Source of the DNA: a virus
Lineage: Duplodnaviria > Heunggongvirae > Uroviricota > Caudoviricetes
Virus record (IMG/VR): IMGVR_UViG_2534681766_000009
Coordinates: 1-7,461 of that record
DNA: 7,461 nt
Reading direction: 5' to 3' (one strand)
The notes beneath the pieces were generated by a model. The model searched no databases, was not told where the DNA came from, and saw only the letters and a list, made by a program, of their open reading frames with translations. Position 1 is the first letter of the stretch; the number at the start of each line of letters is the position of its first letter. Below, piece after piece: positions 1 to 7,461 of this stretch. The position numbers and the translations under genes were made by a program.

Positions 1-1224
1 ATTGAATTAGTTAAATCTTCAGAAAAAAGAATTGAACCAACGACGACTAAATTAGATAAAATTAAATATATTTGGGAAAAAACATTACCTCACCGAGAGC
101 TTGTTTTAGGCGGTTTAACAATTCAAACACGAGCAAAAGGAAATAACGAGGCTGTCTATAACCCCTCGGAAATGAGCGACGGTGAGCGAGTTATTTTCTA
201 TCTGATTGGGCAATGTCTTGCAGCACCCGAAAATGGAATTATTGTCATAGACGAGCCTGAAATTCATCTTCACAAATCTGTACAAGTTCCATTATGGAAG
301 GATATAGAAAAACTCCGACCTGATTGCCTGTTTGTATATATGACTCATGATACTGATTTTGCTGCAGCACTGCATGATGCAAAGAAAATCTGGTTAAAAA
401 GTTATGATGGTTCCAGTTGGGATTGGGAAGATGTTCCCGATGTCGAAGGCCTACCAGAAAGTTTATTAATTGAAATATTGGGTAGTAGAAAACCAATTGT
501 TTTTGTTGAGGGGGAAAATGGAAGCTATGATGTATCCCTTTATCGTGCTGTGTTAAATAGTTATCTAGTGATACCATCTGGTTCTTGTAGTCAAGTAATA
601 CAAAATGTTAAAGCTCTAAGAGCCAGTGAAAAACTCCATTATATGGAAGTTTTTGGTATTATTGATAGGGATAGACGTGTTGAAAATGAAATTCAATCGC
701 TTCTGGAATACGGTATTTATACTCTAAGCGTGGCTGAAGTCGAAAATCTCTTTTGCGTTCCGGAAGTTATAACTTTAGTTAGCGAACGATTAGTCAGGAA
801 TCCAGATAAAGATCTACAATCAGTTAAAGATTTTGTGTTCCGTAAAATATCCTCAGAGCTGGATACTCAGATTTCACTGCGTGTGGCTGGCGAAATTAAA
901 TTCATGCTTAATTGTTTTGATGAAAAAGCAAAAGGGGTCGATGCTCTTAGTAGAGCTCTTGAGTTGTTGACGTCACAAATTAATGTTAAAGAGCTTTATG
1001 ATGAAAGTTTATCTCTGTTTAATAATGCAGTTGAGAAACGTGATTATCTTCTTGCATTAAAACTTTATAACAGGAAAAGCCTTTCATCCCAAGTAAGTAA
1101 GCATCTGGGGCTGGCTAATGGACAGCTTGCTGAATTAGTGGTCAGGATGGCTAATAATGAAAGTGGAGAGTCAATGAGAAATGCTCTCAGACCATATTTT
1201 GGTGAGTTTTCGGGTAAAATATAG
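1..1224 (+). CDS. 5-prime-partial CDS (about 407 codons in window): C-terminal half of an ABC-type ATPase (AAA_21/OLD-like) fused to a Toprim/DUF4435-like nuclease domain; candidate anti-phage protein (OLD-family or PARIS AriA-AriB-fusion-like)
   Basis: Frame 1 is open from nt 1 to the stop at 1222-1224, so the gene starts upstream of the window. ATPase motifs in order: signature-like SEMSDGER (nt 166-189), Walker B IIVIDEPEIHLH (D at 250-252), H-loop-like YMTHDTDF (about nt 340-360). Downstream Toprim-like motifs: IVFVEGENGSYD (E at 508-510) and GIIDRDRR (661-678), i.e. a Glu then DxD about 50 aa later. AT-rich composition contrasts with the phage block. Walker A is not visible (outside window). 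Confidence 0.7.
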   Translation: MELVKSSEKRIEPTTTKLDKIKYIWEKTLPHRELVLGGLTIQTRAKGNNEAVYNPSEMSDGERVIFYLIGQCLAAPENGIIVIDEPEIHLHKSVQVPLWKDIEKLRPDCLFVYMTHDTDFAAALHDAKKIWLKSYDGSSWDWEDVPDVEGLPESLLIEILGSRKPIVFVEGENGSYDVSLYRAVLNSYLVIPSGSCSQVIQNVKALRASEKLHYMEVFGIIDRDRRVENEIQSLLEYGIYTLSVAEVENLFCVPEVITLVSERLVRNPDKDLQSVKDFVFRKISSELDTQISLRVAGEIKFMLNCFDEKAKGVDALSRALELLTSQINVKELYDESLSLFNNAVEKRDYLLALKLYNRKSLSSQVSKHLGLANGQLAELVVRMANNESGESMRNALRPYFGEFSGKI

Positions 1225-1376
1225 TTATACAGAGTGCATAATACTTATCGTGACTGTGGTTGGATGATGTGTGTGGTTCATGTGTCTGCTCCTCGCTCAC
1301 AGCAGGCTGTCAGATTTGATAGCGTTTGGGCTATGTAAATTGTCAGTTGGAAAATGAGTGAGTGCAAGTCAGGACA

Positions 1377-1405
1377 GGCGGGCGAATTGCCCGCCTTTTC
1401 TTTAT
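1377..1405 (+). terminator. Rho-independent terminator (7-bp GC stem GGCGGGC / GCCCGCC, 5-nt loop GAATT, then TTTTCTTTAT)
   Basis: Perfect inverted repeat 1377-1383 / 1389-1395 followed directly by a T-rich run; lies between the cargo gene and the FI promoter region. Confidence 0.6.
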
Positions 1406-1480
1406 CTGTTGTTTCATCCACTGACCAGACAGGTCAAATAGCGTCTCAGGCACTGCCCAATAGAAAATAGTTGCACCCAT
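1406..1480 (+). promoter_or_regulatory. Putative Ogr-dependent late promoter (P_F-like) upstream of the tail sheath gene, containing a TGACC-N5-GGTCA dyad
   Basis: Position directly upstream of FI start (RBS GGAG at 1487-1490). Perfect palindrome TGACCAGACAGGTCA at 1422-1436. An imperfect TGT-N12-CCA at 1410-1427 resembles the TGT-N12-ACA late-promoter element as I remember it. No convincing -35. -10 and TSS not determinable by eye. Confidence 0.3.
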
Positions 1481-1499
1481 TAACCACGGAGTTAAACGG

Positions 1500-1934
1500 A
1501 TGAGTGACTATCATCACGGCGTGCAGGTGCTGGAGATTAACGACGGCACCCGCGTCATTTCCACCGTATCCACTGCCATTGTCGGCATGGTCTGCACGGC
1601 CAGCGATGCGGATGCGGAAATCTTCCCCCTCAATAAACCGGTGCTGATTACCAATGTGCAGAGCGCAATTGCAAAGGCCGGTAAAAAAGGCACGCTGGCG
1701 GCATCGTTGCAGGCCATCGCCGACCAGTCAAAACCGGTCACCGTTGTCGTGCGCGTGGAAGACGGCACCGGCGAAGACGAAGAAACGAAACTCGCGCAGA
1801 CTGTTTCCAATATCATCGGAACCACCGACGAAAACGGTCAGTACACCGGACTGAAAGCCCTGCTGGCGGCGGAGTCGGTACCCTGGACAATCCGGTCAAG
1901 CGTGGTGAGCAGGTCATCGAACAGGTCACGCTGA
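1500..1934 (+). pseudogene. FI: Truncated tail sheath protein gene (P2 FI family): about 127 native N-terminal codons followed by an out-of-frame 17-codon tail
   Basis: N-terminus [40 protein letters not shown]... matches the P2 tail sheath FI N-terminus as I recall it. Sheath proteins of this family are about 396 aa; here the frame runs into E-derived sequence read out of frame ([17 protein letters not shown]) and stops at 1932-1934. Confidence 0.8.
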
Positions 1935-2286
1935 TGAAACCCAATGCCGGGACGCTGCGCGGTGTCAGTCTGGCTGCGGTCGCGAACTCCGAAGTCGATG
2001 CACTGATTAAGGTGCTGCCGCGCATGACGGCACCGATGCTGACCGAGCAGGAAGTCGCCGCGCTGGAACTGCCTGACCTTGTGGCGCTGGCCGGTAAGGT
2101 GGTCGGTTTTTTGTCGCCGAACTCGGTGCAGTGACGTTCCCGAAAAATCTGTCGGTCGATGACCTGATGGCGGATGTGGCAGTGATATTTCACTGGCCGC
2201 CATCAGAACTATATCCCATGAGCCTGACCGAACTCATCACATGGCGCGAAAAGGCGCTCCGGCGAAGCGGAAACACGAATGAGTAA
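1880..2286 (+). pseudogene. E: N-terminally truncated tail assembly chaperone E with its -1 frameshift extension E' (P2 E/E' family); no native start codon
   Basis: Frame 2 reads [24 protein letters not shown]...GFLSPNSVQ to the stop at 2132-2134 with no ATG before the internal Met at 1934. Slippery T_TTT_TTG at 2107-2113; the -1 frame then stays open to TAA at 2284-2286, overlapping the T start, as in P2 E/E'. Confidence 0.7.
2107..2113 (+). other. Programmed -1 ribosomal frameshift slippery heptamer T_TTT_TTG (E to E+E')
   Basis: Heptamer in the 0-frame of E, seven codons before the E stop; the -1 frame is open for about 58 codons after it. This is the conserved chaperone frameshift arrangement of P2-like and lambda-like tail operons. 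Confidence 0.7.
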
Positions 2287-4726
2287 CAATGTAAAATTAC
2301 AGGTATTGCTCAGGGCTGTTGACCAGGCATCCCGCCCGTTTAAATCCATCCGTACAGCGAGCAAGTCGCTGTCGGGGGATATCCGGGAAACACAAAAATC
2401 ACTGCGCGAGCTGAACGGTCAGGCATCCCGTATTGAGGGATTTCGCAAGACCAGTGCACAGCTCTCCGTGACTGGTCATGCACTTGAAAAGGCACGGCAG
2501 GAGGCCGAAGCCCTTGCCACACAGTTTAAAAACACCGAACGTCCGACCCGTGCTCAGGCGAAAGTGCTGGAATCCGCAAAGCGGGCGGCGGAGGACTTAC
2601 AGGCGAAATATAACCGCCTGACGGATTCCGTTAAACGCCAGCAGCGGGAACTGGCCGTTGTGGGAATTAATACCCGCAATCTTGCACATGATGAGCAGGG
2701 ACTGAAAAACCGTATCAGTGAAACCACCGCACAGCTTAACCGTCAGCGTGACGCGCTGGCGCGTGTCAGTGCACAACAGGCAAAACTTAACGCAGTCAAA
2801 CAGCGTTATCAGGCCGGAAAGGAACTGGCCGGAAATATGGCCTCAGTGGGCGCTGCCGGTGTGGGGATTGCTGCTGCGGGAACGATGGCCGGTGTTAAGC
2901 TGCTGATGCCCGGTTATGAGTTTGCGCAGAAAAACTCAGAATTGCAGGCTGTGCTCGGTGTGGCAAAAGACTCCGCCGAAATGGCCGCGCTACGCAAGCA
3001 GGCGCGCCAGCTCGGCGACAATACCGCCGCCTCGGCAGATGATGCAGCCGGGGCGCAGATTATTATTGCGAAAGCCGGTGGGGATGTTGATGCCATTCAG
3101 GCGGCAACGCCGGTCACGCTGAATATGGCGCTGGCGAACCGTCGCACGATGGAAGAAAACGCCGCCCTGCTGATGGGGATGAAATCCGCCTTTCAGCTTT
3201 CAAACGATAAGGTCGCTCATATCGGGGATGTTCTCTCCATGACGATGAACAAAACCGCCGCCGATTTTGACGGCATGAGCGATGCGCTGACCTATGCCGC
3301 ACCTGTGGCAAAAAATGCCGGTGTCAGCATTGAAGAAACCGCCGCAATGGTCGGGGCGCTGCATGATGCAAAAATCACAGGCTCAATGGCGGGGACGGGA
3401 AGCCGTGCCGTGTTAAGCCGCTTGCAGGTACCGACGGGAAAAGCATGGGATGCTCTCAAAGAGCTTGGAGTGAAAACCTCAGACAGCAAAGGAAACTCCC
3501 GGTCAATATTTACCATTCTGAAAGAAATGCAGGCCAGTTTTGAGAAAAACCGGCTCGGTACTGCCCAGCAGGCTGAATACATGAAAACTATTTTCGGGGA
3601 GGAGGCCAGCTCAGCCGCCGCTGTGCTGATGACTGCCGCCTCAACCGGAAAGCTGGACAAACTGACCGCTGCGTTTAAAGCCTCAGACGGGAAGACCGCA
3701 GAGCTGGTAAATATCATGCAGGACAACCTCGGCGGTGACTTTAAGGAGTTTCAGTCCGCTTATGAGGCGGTAGGGACAGACCTGTTTGACCAGCAGGAAG
3801 GCGCACTGCGTAAGCTCACACAGACGGCCACAAAGTATGTGTTAAAACTCGACGGCTGGATACAGAAAAACAAATCACTGGCGTCAACCATCGGCCTCAT
3901 TGTCGGTGGTGCACTGGCGCTGATTGGTATCATCGGTGCCATTGGCCTCGTAGCCTGGCCGGTTATCACCGGCATCAATGCCATTATCGCAGCAGCAGGC
4001 GCAATGGGGGCAATCTTCACGACGGTTGGCAGTGCCGTTATGACGACTATCGGGGCGATTAGCTGGCCGGTAGTGGCCGTGGTGGCCGCCATTGTCGCCG
4101 GGGCGTTACTTATCCGTAAATACTGGGAGCCTGTCAGCGCATTTTTTGGCGGTGTGATTGAAGGGCTGAAAGCGGCATTTGCGCCGGTGGGGGAACTGTT
4201 CACGCCACTTAAACCGGTGTTTGACTGGCTGGGTGAAAAGTTACAGGCCGCGTGGCAGTGGTTTAAAAACCTGATTGCCCCGGTCAAAGCCACCCAGGAC
4301 ACCCTGAACCGTTGCCGTGACACGGGCGTCATGTTCGGGCAGGCACTGGCTGACGCGCTGATGCTGCCGCTTAATGCGTTCAACAAACTGCGCAGTGGTA
4401 TTGACTGGGTACTGGAAAAACTCGGTGTTATCAACAAAGAGTCAGACACACTTGACCAGACCGCCGCCAGAACTCAAGCCGCCACGTATGGCAGCGGTGG
4501 TTATATTCCGGCGACCAGCTCTTATGCAGGCTATCAGGCTTATCAGCCGGTCACGGCACCGGCTGGCCGCTCTTATGTGGACCAGAGTAAAAACGAATAT
4601 CACATCAGCCTGACGGGTGGTACTGCACCGGGGACACAGCTTGACCGCCAGTTACAGGATGCGCTCGAAAAATACGAGCGGGATAAACGTGCGCGCGCCC
4701 GTGCCAGCATGATGCATGACGGTTAA
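2279..4726 (+). CDS. T: Tail tape measure protein (P2 gpT family), 815 aa, apparently intact
   Basis: Single 815-codon ORF, the length I recall for P2 gpT. Coiled-coil-like Q/R/A-rich N-terminal third and a long Gly/Ala/Ile-rich hydrophobic segment (about nt 3880-4110) typical of tape measure proteins. Start ATG 2279 overlaps the E' stop (ATGAGTAA). Confidence 0.9.
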   Translation: MSNNVKLQVLLRAVDQASRPFKSIRTASKSLSGDIRETQKSLRELNGQASRIEGFRKTSAQLSVTGHALEKARQEAEALATQFKNTERPTRAQAKVLESAKRAAEDLQAKYNRLTDSVKRQQRELAVVGINTRNLAHDEQGLKNRISETTAQLNRQRDALARVSAQQAKLNAVKQRYQAGKELAGNMASVGAAGVGIAAAGTMAGVKLLMPGYEFAQKNSELQAVLGVAKDSAEMAALRKQARQLGDNTAASADDAAGAQIIIAKAGGDVDAIQAATPVTLNMALANRRTMEENAALLMGMKSAFQLSNDKVAHIGDVLSMTMNKTAADFDGMSDALTYAAPVAKNAGVSIEETAAMVGALHDAKITGSMAGTGSRAVLSRLQVPTGKAWDALKELGVKTSDSKGNSRSIFTILKEMQASFEKNRLGTAQQAEYMKTIFGEEASSAAAVLMTAASTGKLDKLTAAFKASDGKTAELVNIMQDNLGGDFKEFQSAYEAVGTDLFDQQEGALRKLTQTATKYVLKLDGWIQKNKSLASTIGLIVGGALALIGIIGAIGLVAWPVITGINAIIAAAGAMGAIFTTVGSAVMTTIGAISWPVVAVVAAIVAGALLIRKYWEPVSAFFGGVIEGLKAAFAPVGELFTPLKPVFDWLGEKLQAAWQWFKNLIAPVKATQDTLNRCRDTGVMFGQALADALMLPLNAFNKLRSGIDWVLEKLGVINKESDTLDQTAARTQAATYGSGGYIPATSSYAGYQAYQPVTAPAGRSYVDQSKNEYHISLTGGTAPGTQLDRQLQDALEKYERDKRARARASMMHDG

Positions 4727-4740
4727 GGAGGTGACGAAAA

Positions 4741-5220
4741 ATGATGCTCGCGTTAGGTATGTTTGTTTTTATGCGCCAGACGCTGCCACACCAGACCATG
4801 CAGCGTGAATCAGATTATCGCTGGCCGTCAAATTCCCGTATCGGTAAACGGGATGCCTACCAGTTTCTCGGCGTTGGTGAGGAAAACATGACGCTTGCCG
4901 GTGTGCTTTATCCCGAACTGACCGGCGGCAAGCTGACGATGACCACGCTCAGACTGATGGCAGATGAAGGCCGGGCGTGGCCGTTGCTGGATGGTACCGG
5001 CATGATTTACGGCATGTATGTCATCAGCAAGGTGAGTGAAACAGGGAGTATTTTCTTTGCAGACGGCACACCCCGAAAAATTGATTTTACGCTGTCGCTC
5101 ACCCGCGTTGATGAATCACTGGCCGCGCTTTATGGCGATATCGGTAAACAGGCGGAATCGCTCATTGGTAAGGCTGGCAGTATGGCGACTAAATTCACGG
5201 GTATGACGGGGGCGGGATAA
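4741..5220 (+). CDS. U: Tail protein U (P2 gpU family), 159 aa, apparently intact
   Basis: 159-codon ORF, the length I recall for P2 gpU, N-terminus MMLALGMFVFMRQTLPHQ. Strong SD AAGGAGG at 4725-4731 about 9 nt upstream. Stop TAA 5218-5220 overlaps the D start (TAATG). Confidence 0.88.
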   Translation: MMLALGMFVFMRQTLPHQTMQRESDYRWPSNSRIGKRDAYQFLGVGEENMTLAGVLYPELTGGKLTMTTLRLMADEGRAWPLLDGTGMIYGMYVISKVSETGSIFFADGTPRKIDFTLSLTRVDESLAALYGDIGKQAESLIGKAGSMATKFTGMTGAG

Positions 5221-6381
5221 TGCTGGATGCGCTGACATTTGATGCAGGCAGTACGCTGACGCCGGATTACATGCTGATGCTCGACAGCAGGGATATTACC
5301 GGCAATATCAGCGACCGTCTGATGAGTATGACCCTGACGGATAACCGGGGCTTTGAGGCTGACCAGCTTGATATTGAACTGAACGATGCCGACGGGCAGG
5401 TCGGGCTGCCGGTTCGTGGCGCTGTCCTGACGGTGTATATCGGCTGGAAAGGTTTTGCCCTGGTATGCAAAGGGAAATTTACCGTTGATGAGGTAGAACA
5501 CCGGGGCGCGCCGGATGTGGTCACCATCCGCGCCCGGAGTGCAGATTTTCGCGGGACGCTCAATTCCCGCCGGGAAGGCTCCTGGCATGACACCACGCTC
5601 GGTGCGATTGTTGAGGCGATAGCCTCCCGTAACAGGCTGGAAGCCAGTGTCGCTCCGTCACTGGCCGGAAATAAAATCCCGCACATCGACCAGTCGCAGG
5701 AGTCTGATGCGAAATTCCTGACCCGTCTTGCAGAACGCAACGGCGGTGAGGTGTCGGTAAAAATGGGAAAACTGTTGTTTCTCAAAGCGGGGCAGGGGGT
5801 GACGGCCAGCGGTAAAAAAATCCCGCAGGTCACCATCTCCCGCAGCGACGGCGACCGTCATCATTTTGCGATTGCTGACCGTGGAGCCTATACCGGCGTA
5901 ACGGCAAAGTGGTTACACACCAAAGACCCGAAACCGCAAAAGCAGAAGGTAAAACTGAAACGCAAAAAGAAAGAGAAACACCTGCGCGCACTGGAGCACC
6001 CGAAAGCGAAACCGGTCAGGCAGAAGAAAGCGCCTAAAGTACCGGAAGCGCGCGAAGGTGAATACATGGCCGGTGAGGCTGACAACGTTTTTGCCCTGAC
6101 CACGGTATATGCCACGAAAGCGCAGGCCATGCGCGCCGCTCAGGCGAAGTGGGATAACTGCAACGGGGGTGGCGGAGTTCTCCATCAGCCTGGCTACCGG
6201 TCGGGCAGATATTTACACGGAAACACCGGTCAAAGTGTCAGGCTTTAAGCGCGTCATAGACGAGCAGGACTGGACAATCACTAAGGTGACACATTTTCTG
6301 AATAATAGCGGCTTCACGACGTCCTTGGAGCTTGAGGTCAGGCTTTCTGATGTGGAGTACGAAACAGAAGATGATGAGTGA
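5220..6381 (+). pseudogene. D: Tail protein D (P2 gpD family) interrupted by a +1 frameshift in a G5 run at 6165-6169; would be 386 aa if one G were removed
   Basis: Frame 3 ORF 5220-6248 (MLDALTFDAGSTL...) continues as frame 1 ORF ending at 6381 (GVAEFSISLATGRADIYTE...EDDE). Removing one G from GGGGG joins them as ...KWDNCNGVAEFSIS..., close to the 387 aa I recall for P2 gpD. Could be a genuine pseudogene or a homopolymer sequencing error. Confidence 0.8.
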
Positions 6382-6399
6382 TGTTTTTGTTTTATCTGT

Positions 6400-6428
6400 T
6401 TGTTTTATAAGGACAAATTAACTAAAAT
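6400..6428 (+). promoter_or_regulatory. Putative sigma70 promoter of ogr: -35 TTGTTT (6400-6405), 17-nt spacer, -10 TAAAAT (6423-6428)
   Basis: Hexamers with canonical spacing in the D-ogr intergenic region, about 34 nt upstream of the ogr ATG at 6462; RBS GAGGTG just upstream of the start. Confidence 0.4.
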
Positions 6429-6461
6429 GGCACCATCAACAAACCGGAAGAGGTGCTCGCG

Positions 6462-6679
6462 ATGTTTCATTGTCCTTTATGCCAGCATGCCGCACATGCG
6501 CGTACAAGCGCTATATCACTGACACGACAAAAGAGCGTTATCACCAGTGCCAGAACGTGAATTGCAGCGCCACGTTCATCACTTATGAGTCGGTACAGAG
6601 ATACATCGTGAAGCCGGGAGAAGTCCACGCCGTAAGACCGCACCCGTTGCCGTCAGGGCAGCAAATTATGTGGATGTAA
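6462..6679 (+). pseudogene. ogr: Late transcription activator Ogr (Cys4 zinc-finger, P2 Ogr/Delta family) disrupted by a 1-nt deletion near 6508-6511; would be 72 aa if restored
   Basis: Frame 3 from ATG 6462 reads MFHCPLCQHAAHARTS then diverges and stops. Frame 2 carries the rest: ...RYITDTTKERYHQCQNVNCSATFITYESVQRYIVKPGEVHAVRPHPLPSGQQIMWM to the stop at 6677-6679. Inserting one C (AGCGCT to AGCCGCT) restores a 72-codon ORF with the C-X2-C-X22-C-X4-C pattern. No single frame currently has all four Cys. Confidence 0.8.
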
Positions 6680-6690
6680 TTACAAACAGG

Positions 6691-6720
6691 AAGCCCCTCA
6701 GTCGAGGGGCTTTCTGTTTT
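6691..6720 (+). terminator. Rho-independent terminator after ogr (9-bp stem AAGCCCCTC / GAGGGGCTT, 4-nt loop, then TCTGTTTT)
   Basis: Perfect inverted repeat 6691-6699 / 6704-6712 followed by a T-rich tract, 12 nt after the ogr stop. Confidence 0.7.
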
Positions 6721-6819
6721 GGGGAATATTCTTCATTAAAAGTAGTGGATCACGTTTAATAAACTATGTTTATCATATACTTAAAAGTAACTTTTTAAAG
6801 TTGGACAGGTTGGTGGAAA

Positions 6820-7461
6820 ATGGAAAAAGTTATAATTGAGCTTGATAATCGTTGGGAGTTAGCTGATTTCGCGGTCTTAACGAAAGAGTATTTGCAGCTA
6901 TATGGTTTTTTTTATGGCCTAAAAGGAGGATCAAGAGGATATTCAACAATGCCTTGGGAGGGTGGGCACAGTGTAGTGAACTTTTTTAGAGGGGCTTACA
7001 GTGCGACTCCACCAGATTTACGTCCTGTAGTGAAAAAAATTCAGTATGCCTCTCCTGGCTTTATTGAATTGTCTGCTCTTATTGATATCTCTTGGCAGAT
7101 TGCTGAGTTAGTTACTGCTGTTGGTGGAAGTATTCTGGCTGCCAACAAAGTTTACGATCAGGTGATGCGTACATATCGACAAAGAGAATGGGCAAAGTTG
7201 AAATCAGAGAAGCTGCGTATACAGAATCAAATTAAAGAGATTGAACTTGTTTCTGACGCAGTTAAATCACTTGAATCTGTGATGGCACTTAGTGAAGAAC
7301 AACGTAAAAACTTGGTTCAACTATCGGGGGCAGATGAACTGGTTCAGTTAAAGATACTTTTGGCTGTTTACCGACGGTTATCTCCTCTTGTTGAGTTGCA
7401 AAACAGCGGGAAAGCTAATTTTTCTGCAGGGAAAAATAAAAATTTAAAAGCGTCCGATTAA
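6820..7461 (+). CDS. Hypothetical protein, 213 aa, AT-rich gene of unrecognised family; C-terminal half looks coiled-coil-like
   Basis: Complete ORF from ATG 6820 to TAA 7459-7461 (the last base of the window). GGTGG RBS-like motif at 6806-6810. Possible -10 TATACT at 6776-6781. Composition and codon usage differ from the phage block. No catalytic motif recognised. Confidence 0.65.
   Translation: MEKVIIELDNRWELADFAVLTKEYLQLYGFFYGLKGGSRGYSTMPWEGGHSVVNFFRGAYSATPPDLRPVVKKIQYASPGFIELSALIDISWQIAELVTAVGGSILAANKVYDQVMRTYRQREWAKLKSEKLRIQNQIKEIELVSDAVKSLESVMALSEEQRKNLVQLSGADELVQLKILLAVYRRLSPLVELQNSGKANFSAGKNKNLKASD

Follow-up and report, generated by a model that had tools for sequence, protein, structure and literature searches.

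The 7,461-nucleotide (nt) stretch analysed here, referred to as the window, comprises nt 1-7,461 of contig APXD01000154.1 (assembly GCA_000356325.2) of Escherichia coli 2730350 and holds part of a P2-like prophage in which the tail sheath gene FI is fused to the chaperone gene E. The fusion very probably represents a natural deletion of 1,419 base pairs (bp) in the late F operon of an already defective prophage, joined at the dinucleotide TA and later spread clonally. The junction is ordinary prophage decay, with no sign of engineering. Moreover, the left end of the deletion falls in a short segment of FI (nt 357-382) that constitutes a recurrent and in part nucleotide-precise breakpoint zone among P2-like FI genes, for which more than one cause can be considered.

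The breakpoints were determined by base-by-base comparison of the window with an intact reference, the locus of E. coli 700481 (L004), in which FI (396 amino acids, aa), FII (172 aa), E (91 aa), E', T, U, D, and ogrK are all intact. An earlier reading of the DNA without database searches (the sequence-only reading) had proposed a deletion fusing the 5' fragment of FI to E, with loss of the FI C-terminus, FII, and the start of E; the intact 700481 locus bears this out, and the gene lengths it gave for FI, FII, and E agree with the annotations of both P2 and 700481. In a megablast search of 5,426 complete E. coli genomes and phage records the region splits at window position 1879, to the right of which the sequence is 98-100% identical to E/E'/T of P2-like phages. 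Window positions 1-1880 correspond to L004 3001-4880 without mismatches, and from position 1879 on the window follows L004 from 6298 on, with one mismatch as far as window position 5837 (approximately 3.9 kb); over the whole right flank (4.8 kb) the difference from L004 amounts to 11 substitutions and four one-base gaps. The two registers overlap by TA (1879..1880), the 2-nt microhomology common to FI (GGTA/ACC) and E (ATTA/CCC), and the DNA missing relative to L004 measures exactly 1,419 bp, against the approximately 1.3 kb estimated beforehand. The lost DNA comprises FI codons 128-396, the entire FII gene, both intergenic regions, and E codons 1-7, so that the start of E is indeed missing but the loss from this gene is confined to its first seven codons. 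FI nt 381 is joined to E nt 23, the last native FI codon being codon 127 (GTA, window 1878-1880), and E codon 8 (ACC) is rebuilt across the join.

Comparison of the junction with the intact relative detected no inserted DNA, att site, or long repeat at the join, and the flanks are colinear with that relative. As judged from its sequence, the junction fits a microhomology-mediated (illegitimate) deletion in a decaying prophage, and its pattern points to illegitimate, microhomology-mediated end joining, not to homologous or site-specific recombination. FI nt 381 and E nt 23 would have been joined at the TA microhomology by end joining, after which the deletion would have spread clonally. The possibility that a short FI followed directly by E is the native arrangement of a phage lineage is contradicted by the intact version of the same locus in 700481, the left flank of which is 100% identical.

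The FI-E junction is a real, rare, and recent event. The exact 144-aa fusion protein is encoded on 11 contigs, and an identical 30-nt junction was present in seven of the seven loci fetched (the source contig, three other assemblies from NCBI, and three Logan assemblies of sequencing runs), with flanks 99.97-100% identical to the window. The junction was absent from all 5,426 complete E. coli genomes searched by megablast, and searches for the exact junction and for its anchors in one-genome-per-species contigs returned no carrier and only two intact relatives. The FI fragment of the window is identical to that of intact 700481 and differs from all other alleles examined by 5-15 substitutions per 363 nt.

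The element was already a defective remnant before the FI-E deletion. Its best relative, the 700481 locus, is a defective P2-like element adjoining trhP (yegQ) and ogrK, and in the carriers as well as in 700481 the upstream genes comprise only the portal gene, W, a tail-fibre assembly gene, and fragments of terminase, V, and J; no complete head or baseplate module is present in either. A long carrier contig (L005) places the element between the P2 replication protein A gene and trhP (yegQ) and has both D (387 aa) and ogr (72 aa) in intact form. Full-length genes for sheath and tube are both absent from the window element, and the prediction that neither structure can be made is accurate, but phage production is unaffected, the element being a defective remnant already.

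The FI fragment (1500..1880, plus strand) retains codons 1-127 in native form, with no mismatches to the 700481 gene and a match to Pfam Gp18_domIII_N (E 2.7e-14). FI and E occupy different frames and the 1,419 bp lost are divisible by three, for which reason the FI frame enters E out of frame and reads 17 codons of E DNA (1881..1934, plus strand) up to a TGA stop at 1932-1934, in agreement with what had been read from the sequence. The resulting 144-aa open reading frame (ORF) (1500-1934, plus strand; GenBank ENA76305.1) consists of 127 FI residues and a 17-residue nonsense tail. Gp18_domIII_N is the only Pfam domain on the FI fragment, whereas intact homologues have all three domains. The fragment resembles a P2-type sheath FI in its N-terminal identity and its position behind the late promoter PF, and it lacks the length (approximately 396 aa), the Phage_sheath_1 domain (PF04984), and the C-terminal domain (PF17482) of the full-length protein.

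The PF region was assigned by alignment of P2 17499-18059 with window 1347-1907 in combination with the P2 annotation. The stretch aligned to the annotated binding site of the activator Ogr (1407..1432, plus strand) is only partly conserved, and the position equivalent to the P2 F-operon transcription start (1474..1476, plus strand) is placed by alignment only. No sigma-70 consensus promoter was found at the PF region, which fits an activator-dependent promoter, and the window contains no match to TGT-N12-ACA as an Ogr site, a consensus that may itself be wrong. Since the Ogr-dependent PF region still precedes it, the FI fragment would be transcribed only when Ogr is made.

The E remnant (1880..2134, plus strand) comprises codons 8-91 and the stop codon, equals L004 from 6299 on, and matches Pfam Phage_TAC_7 (E 1.4e-11) over residues 1-78 of its 84 residues. 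In addition to this domain it retains the other hallmarks of gpE and gpE+E', namely the slippery heptamer TTTTTTG for the -1 frameshift yielding E+E' (2107..2113, plus strand, read from the sequence) and the overlapping E' extension frame (2131..2286, plus strand; PF06528, the GpE family part of E+E'); the annotated P2 frameshift position (19685, E nt 256) maps to window position 2114, right after the heptamer. The remnant lacks the ribosome-binding site and start codon of its own that a complete, 91-aa gpE has. The first in-frame ATG (1934-1936) encodes Met26, upstream of which there is no ATG, GTG, or TTG, as the sequence-only reading had also noted; the NCBI contig annotation used CTG at 1883 as the E start. 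An E product could be expected only by re-initiation at Met26 and would lack 25 of the 91 residues, about a third of the chaperone domain; such a product is probably non-functional.

The stop codon of the FI fusion overlaps this ATG (TGATG, 1932-1936), as in translationally coupled gene pairs. The overlap had been located correctly and singled out as an unusual detail, but the pentamer is native CTG-ATG (Leu25-Met26), unchanged from intact E, and with 40 copies in the window its presence here does not exceed chance. With a weak Shine-Dalgarno-like AGGT 8 nt ahead of ATG1934 (read from the sequence), re-initiation or translational coupling at TGATG is conceivable. Nothing in the sequence suggests selection for the TGATG overlap or the Met26 product: the pentamer is native E sequence and not a conserved or selected overlap, and its prior presence in intact E and the nonsense character of the fusion tail argue against any functional reading.

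In FI numbering (window coordinate minus 1499), the recurrent breakpoint zone corresponds to window 1856..1880, the window keeping FI nt 357-381 of the nt 357-382 found in intact genes. In the 90% cluster of the fusion protein, other members likewise cease to match FI right after ...AAESV, and follow-up of these members, together with three anchored surveys, resulted in a table of breakpoints with at least ten distinct deletions and two insertion sequence (IS) insertions in FI nt 357-382. Five of the deletions lie at nt 381/382. The window type, in the remnant beside yegQ, keeps FI to nt 381 and resumes at E codon 8 (joined at TA), and FI is kept to nt 381/382 in a yegR/yegQ remnant with int-C-cox (L017; right end T codon 213, TA), an IMG/VR contig (L101; right end FI nt 710, TA), a food metagenome (L277; right end FII codon 17, TA), and a remnant beside pflB-focA seen on at least 24 contigs (L013; right end in the 3' part of FII, AA). 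Further to the left, FI is kept to nt 366 in NCTC9100 (L001; right end E codon 72, CTG), to nt 367 in L319 (right end FII, GG), to nt 368 in L240 (right end T codon 764, TGGC), and to nt 357 in LR-28 (L373; right end the T-U spacer, about 1 nt). L351 carries a leftward deletion in which the V gene is joined to FI from about nt 380 onward. The IS insertions are an IS66-family (ISEc43-like) element with an 8-bp target duplication (GTCGGTAA, FI nt 375-382; the two sides are L077 and L354), and a 2.6-kb IS21-family-like element in an IMG/VR contig (L185) with a 5-bp duplication (CCTGC, nt 360-364) and ends TGCGTATT...AATACGCA.

All eight deletion alleles that were compared reside on different FI haplotypes. 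The idea that the NCTC9100 deletion is nested within the window type was rejected, as the haplotypes differ at 7 of 363 nt and that of the window equals intact 700481. NCTC9100 has a second deletion, from T to D, and in GPEC1240 (L002) FI codon 191 is joined to the 3' part of FII. An ISEc12 element (IS21 family) is present in FI at nt 418-422 in strains E302 (L012 2139-4715) and Ecol_542; the E302 copy was discarded as a source of the break on account of its position, which is not nt 381.

The three anchored surveys were not chosen for the site. From an anchor at FI nt 1-29, 119 loci were recovered in IMG/VR, 92 of them intact, with internal events at nt 51 (doubtful), 364 (the IS), 381, 699, 871, and 907. 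From an anchor at nt 328-363, 98 of 120 metagenome loci were intact and real breaks occurred at nt 367, 368, 381, and 1034. Read from nt 385-404, 115 of 120 IMG/VR loci were colinear to the start of FI, the only breaks being at nt 360, 375, and about 380. Against a uniform distribution, the binomial probabilities are 5e-5, 7e-3, and 3e-4 for the three surveys in this order and 2e-9 when pooled (7 of 12 events within 26 of 1,191 nt). Two caveats attach to these values: it was biased finds that had initially pointed to the zone, which the later addition of LR-28 widened, and database contigs are no random sample. A further apparent FI break in the metagenome survey, at nt 774 in L284 (ERZ1026903 NODE-4362), continues into CTGTCTCTTATACACATCT, a Nextera adapter, and is an artefact of untrimmed reads in a public metagenome assembly.

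Alleles broken at the zone are rare among complete genomes: a 120-nt probe with the site at its middle matched 1,623 records, only 6 of which did not match it over its whole length. Full-length FI as a protein query retrieved full-length homologues only and was unsuited to surveying truncations, and patterns of 16-17 nt searched in IMG/VR gave nearly exclusively chance matches, with one real match, L077.

Loss of an IS together with adjacent DNA is the best guess for what triggered the left-end break, and it is offered tentatively. In the window lineage an IS would have landed at FI nt 375-382 and would later have been lost together with the DNA to its right, the ends being re-joined at a microhomology. 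FI nt 382 is the last nucleotide to the left of the IS66-family insertion, and in five of the five rightward cluster deletions the retained FI sequence runs to nt 381 or 382, its terminal TA or AA serving as the microhomology, which is as expected if an IS was removed at its boundary and end joining followed. Transposase- and IEE-dependent IS excision has been described to bring about the loss of neighbouring DNA, from a few nt up to more than 40 kb, and IEE has microhomology-mediated end-joining activity (PMC9943667); moreover, microhomology scars of 2-4 bp have been described after IS loss (bioRxiv 10.1101/2023.06.07.543989). The deletions of the IEE type in pathogenic E. coli resemble those in FI in that one end is fixed at the IS boundary and the other is variable, the far end lies hundreds of bp to several kb away, the join uses 2-4 nt of microhomology, and no IS is left. 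They differ in that they are known for the IS1, IS3, and IS30 families, whereas the elements at or near the FI site belong to the IS66 and IS21 families.

Several observations weigh against IS loss as the trigger. No IS-bearing intermediate was found on the 700481-type haplotype of the window, and an IS at the fixed end is documented only in another lineage, as the IS66-family element with target duplication at FI nt 375-382. This insertion is rare, occurring in one metagenome and in none of the 5,426 complete genomes. Each deletion allele compared has an FI haplotype of its own, so that an IS would have had to insert repeatedly at one and the same nucleotide. The activity of IEE has been shown on the IS1, IS3, and IS30 families, not on IS66 (PMC9943667). 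Finally, L319 keeps at least 1 nt more of FI than the left flank of the IS21-family element allows.

The main alternative to IS loss, itself judged unlikely, is that FI nt 357-382 is an intrinsically fragile site that is broken directly, for example through nicking of an ori-like sequence by the P2 initiator A, after which the ends would be re-joined at microhomologies; the landing of IS elements there would have the same structural basis. The heptamer CGGAGTC (1870..1876, plus strand; FI nt 371-377) has the same sequence as the core of the nick site in the P2 ori (GCGCCTCG^GAGTCC) and is of unproven significance; it lies between the two breakpoint clusters, on the same strand as the P2 ori heptamer (L369 2392-2398, P2 29891-29897). 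Carriers keep an intact A gene with a true ori, and nick sites of rolling-circle replicons are reportedly known deletion end points, as Michel and Ehrlich are said to have described in 1986. The occurrence of all compared deletion alleles on different haplotypes fits a cause inherent to the site, as does the sharing of 26 nt by two IS families and at least ten deletions. The match to the ori is, however, 7 nt only, the predicted nick (nt 372/373) is off the actual ends (nt 357-368 and 381/382), and the sharpest recurrence (nt 381/382) coincides with the flank of the IS66-family element and not with the nick. A 7-bp inverted repeat (ACACCGG/CCGGTGT) at FI nt 344-350 (window 1843-1849) and nt 383-389 (L004 4843-4849 and 4882-4888) brackets 32 nt holding every left breakpoint found, the right arm having been removed by the window deletion, but its fold is no better than that of shuffled sequence (z = -0.3), for which reason a hairpin was set aside as the cause. 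In an extended version, FI nt 357-382 would be an intrinsic, lineage-independent weak point of P2-like phages that attracts IS elements and breaks, repeatedly knocks out sheath and tube, and so channels prophages into immobile defence carriers; this is regarded as rather doubtful.

Other candidate causes of the zone look weak. Restriction at GGTNACC is poorly supported: the site at nt 378 overlaps the hot spot, but the sites at nt 237, 591, 823, and 1167 are unbroken. Protection of the left end by a Chi-like octamer (GCTGGCGG, nt 363-370) is poorly supported too, since a second copy of the octamer at nt 195 is unbroken, and it leaves the leftward deletion of L351 unexplained. Self-targeting by a Type I CRISPR system was set aside, as no canonical I-E or I-F protospacer-adjacent motif adjoins the fixed end by eye.

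It is very unlikely that the truncation has been selected for function, with the 127-residue FI fragment, with or without a coupled E(26-91), interfering with tail assembly of superinfecting P2-like phages. Such a role would fit the many independent remnants that keep approximately 119-127 FI codons behind the PF region and otherwise carry defence genes, but the tails past codon 127 differ and are nonsense, and selection for the fragment explains neither the sharing of the site by the leftward deletion and the IS insertions nor the nucleotide-exact recurrence.

An assembly artefact, in the form of a collapse or mis-join in a draft genome, is highly improbable as the origin of the junction. The sequence-only reading had named assembly collapse as a result that would overturn it; this did not materialize, since the junction is identical in seven independent assemblies from differing projects and assemblers, and a 2-nt overlap is too short for a graph mis-join. 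What speaks for an artefact is that the window contig looks hybrid further to the right, from approximately 6100 on, with four private 1-nt deletions. Up to approximately 6100 the window matches the yegQ-adjoining remnant of the other carriers, and from approximately 6700 the match is to the right end of another P2-like prophage, located beside fieF-pfkA, as in strain E302. The four deletions in the transition (6156, 6169, 6441, and 6509) are absent from all other assemblies checked, and they frameshift D and ogr. The identity switch in 6100-7461 is probably an assembly chimera or poor consensus, and possibly a real recombinant.

Engineering through KpnI or a designed KpnI site is practically out of the question: the GGTACC hexamer lies exactly on the junction (1877..1882), but it arose de novo when the GGTA of an FI sequence reading GGTAAC was placed before the CC of an E sequence reading TTACCC. 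With the site missing from both parents and no linker or other bases added, cut-and-ligate is impossible; the carriers are assemblies of isolates and sequencing runs, and the unrelated L101 deletion independently yielded the same hexamer from the same FI end. The coordinates given for the hexamer by the sequence-only reading were right, and the significance attached to it was not, as GGTACC is absent from both parents; it is a by-product of the join that does not exceed chance, with three copies in the window against about one expected.

The gene order in the window is colinear with the late F operon of P2 (FI, FII, E/E+E', T, U, and D, behind PF), and the PF region, the 127 FI codons, E codons 8-91, TTTTTTG, E', T, and U are approximately 95-99% identical to P2-like phages. 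Compared with P2, the window lacks the 1,419 bp, D and ogr are frameshifted, and most head and baseplate genes are absent. The cryptic P2 remnants at yegQ (trhP)/ogrK share the chromosomal site with the other carriers (L005) and have likewise lost late genes step by step through internal deletions. The corresponding remnant of E. coli K-12 presumably keeps only a D fragment and ogrK. Compared with the remnants of NCTC9100 (FI break at nt 366) and LR-28 (nt 357), the window type has a different, private junction and keeps T and U, with D and ogr intact in other carriers. In L010 (ERR054673) the same FI-E junction is accompanied by a second deletion, which begins at the start of T, reaches into the end of U (equivalent to window 2435-5192), and measures approximately 2.76 kb; it is a further step of decay in a sub-lineage.

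The FI-E junction adds one more step to the decay of this prophage and provides a clonal marker for one E. coli lineage. Its wider point is that the same few nt of the P2 sheath gene end many independent deletions and two IS insertions. Should a large survey confirm this, the decay of prophages at this locus would be non-random, the site could serve as a natural model for how IS elements or a phage nickase cause deletions with one fixed end, and it would show how defence cargo (PARIS, DarTG, and others) gets stranded in dead prophages.

Such cargo is present in the window itself. The gene upstream of FI encodes a fused PARIS AriAB (PADLOC E 5e-187; Pfam AAA_21 and DUF4435); the full gene spans L005 8112-9725, and window 1-1224 holds its last 407 codons. 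Single-gene AriAB fusions have been described (Rousset et al., PMC9122126). The fusion occupies the position of the variable Z/fun locus of P2, as in the defence hotspots of P2-like phages, the difference being that the prophage carrying the cargo here is dead and in the course of losing its tail genes. In LR-28, a DarT and macro-domain gene (DarTG) is present at the Z/fun position. The first part of L005 (1-4732) contains a full-length replication gene A with a true ori and a gene for a 738-aa AAA_13 protein, and the 738-aa gene of this remnant matches the candidate system PDC-S06 (E 1e-254).

From left to right, the window contains the 3' part of this 537-aa AriAB gene (1-1224), a terminator-like hairpin (1376-1396) upstream of the FI fragment, the PF-homologous region, the 144-aa ORF, the E remnant, E', the tape measure gene T, which is intact and lies downstream in the same operon (2279..4726, plus strand), and U, followed by frameshifted D, frameshifted ogr, and an AT-rich ORF of 213 aa (6820-7461). 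The latter ORF, located after ogr, matches PADLOC PD-T4-10_B (E 1e-34), has no Pfam domain, and is a candidate defence gene at the prophage end.

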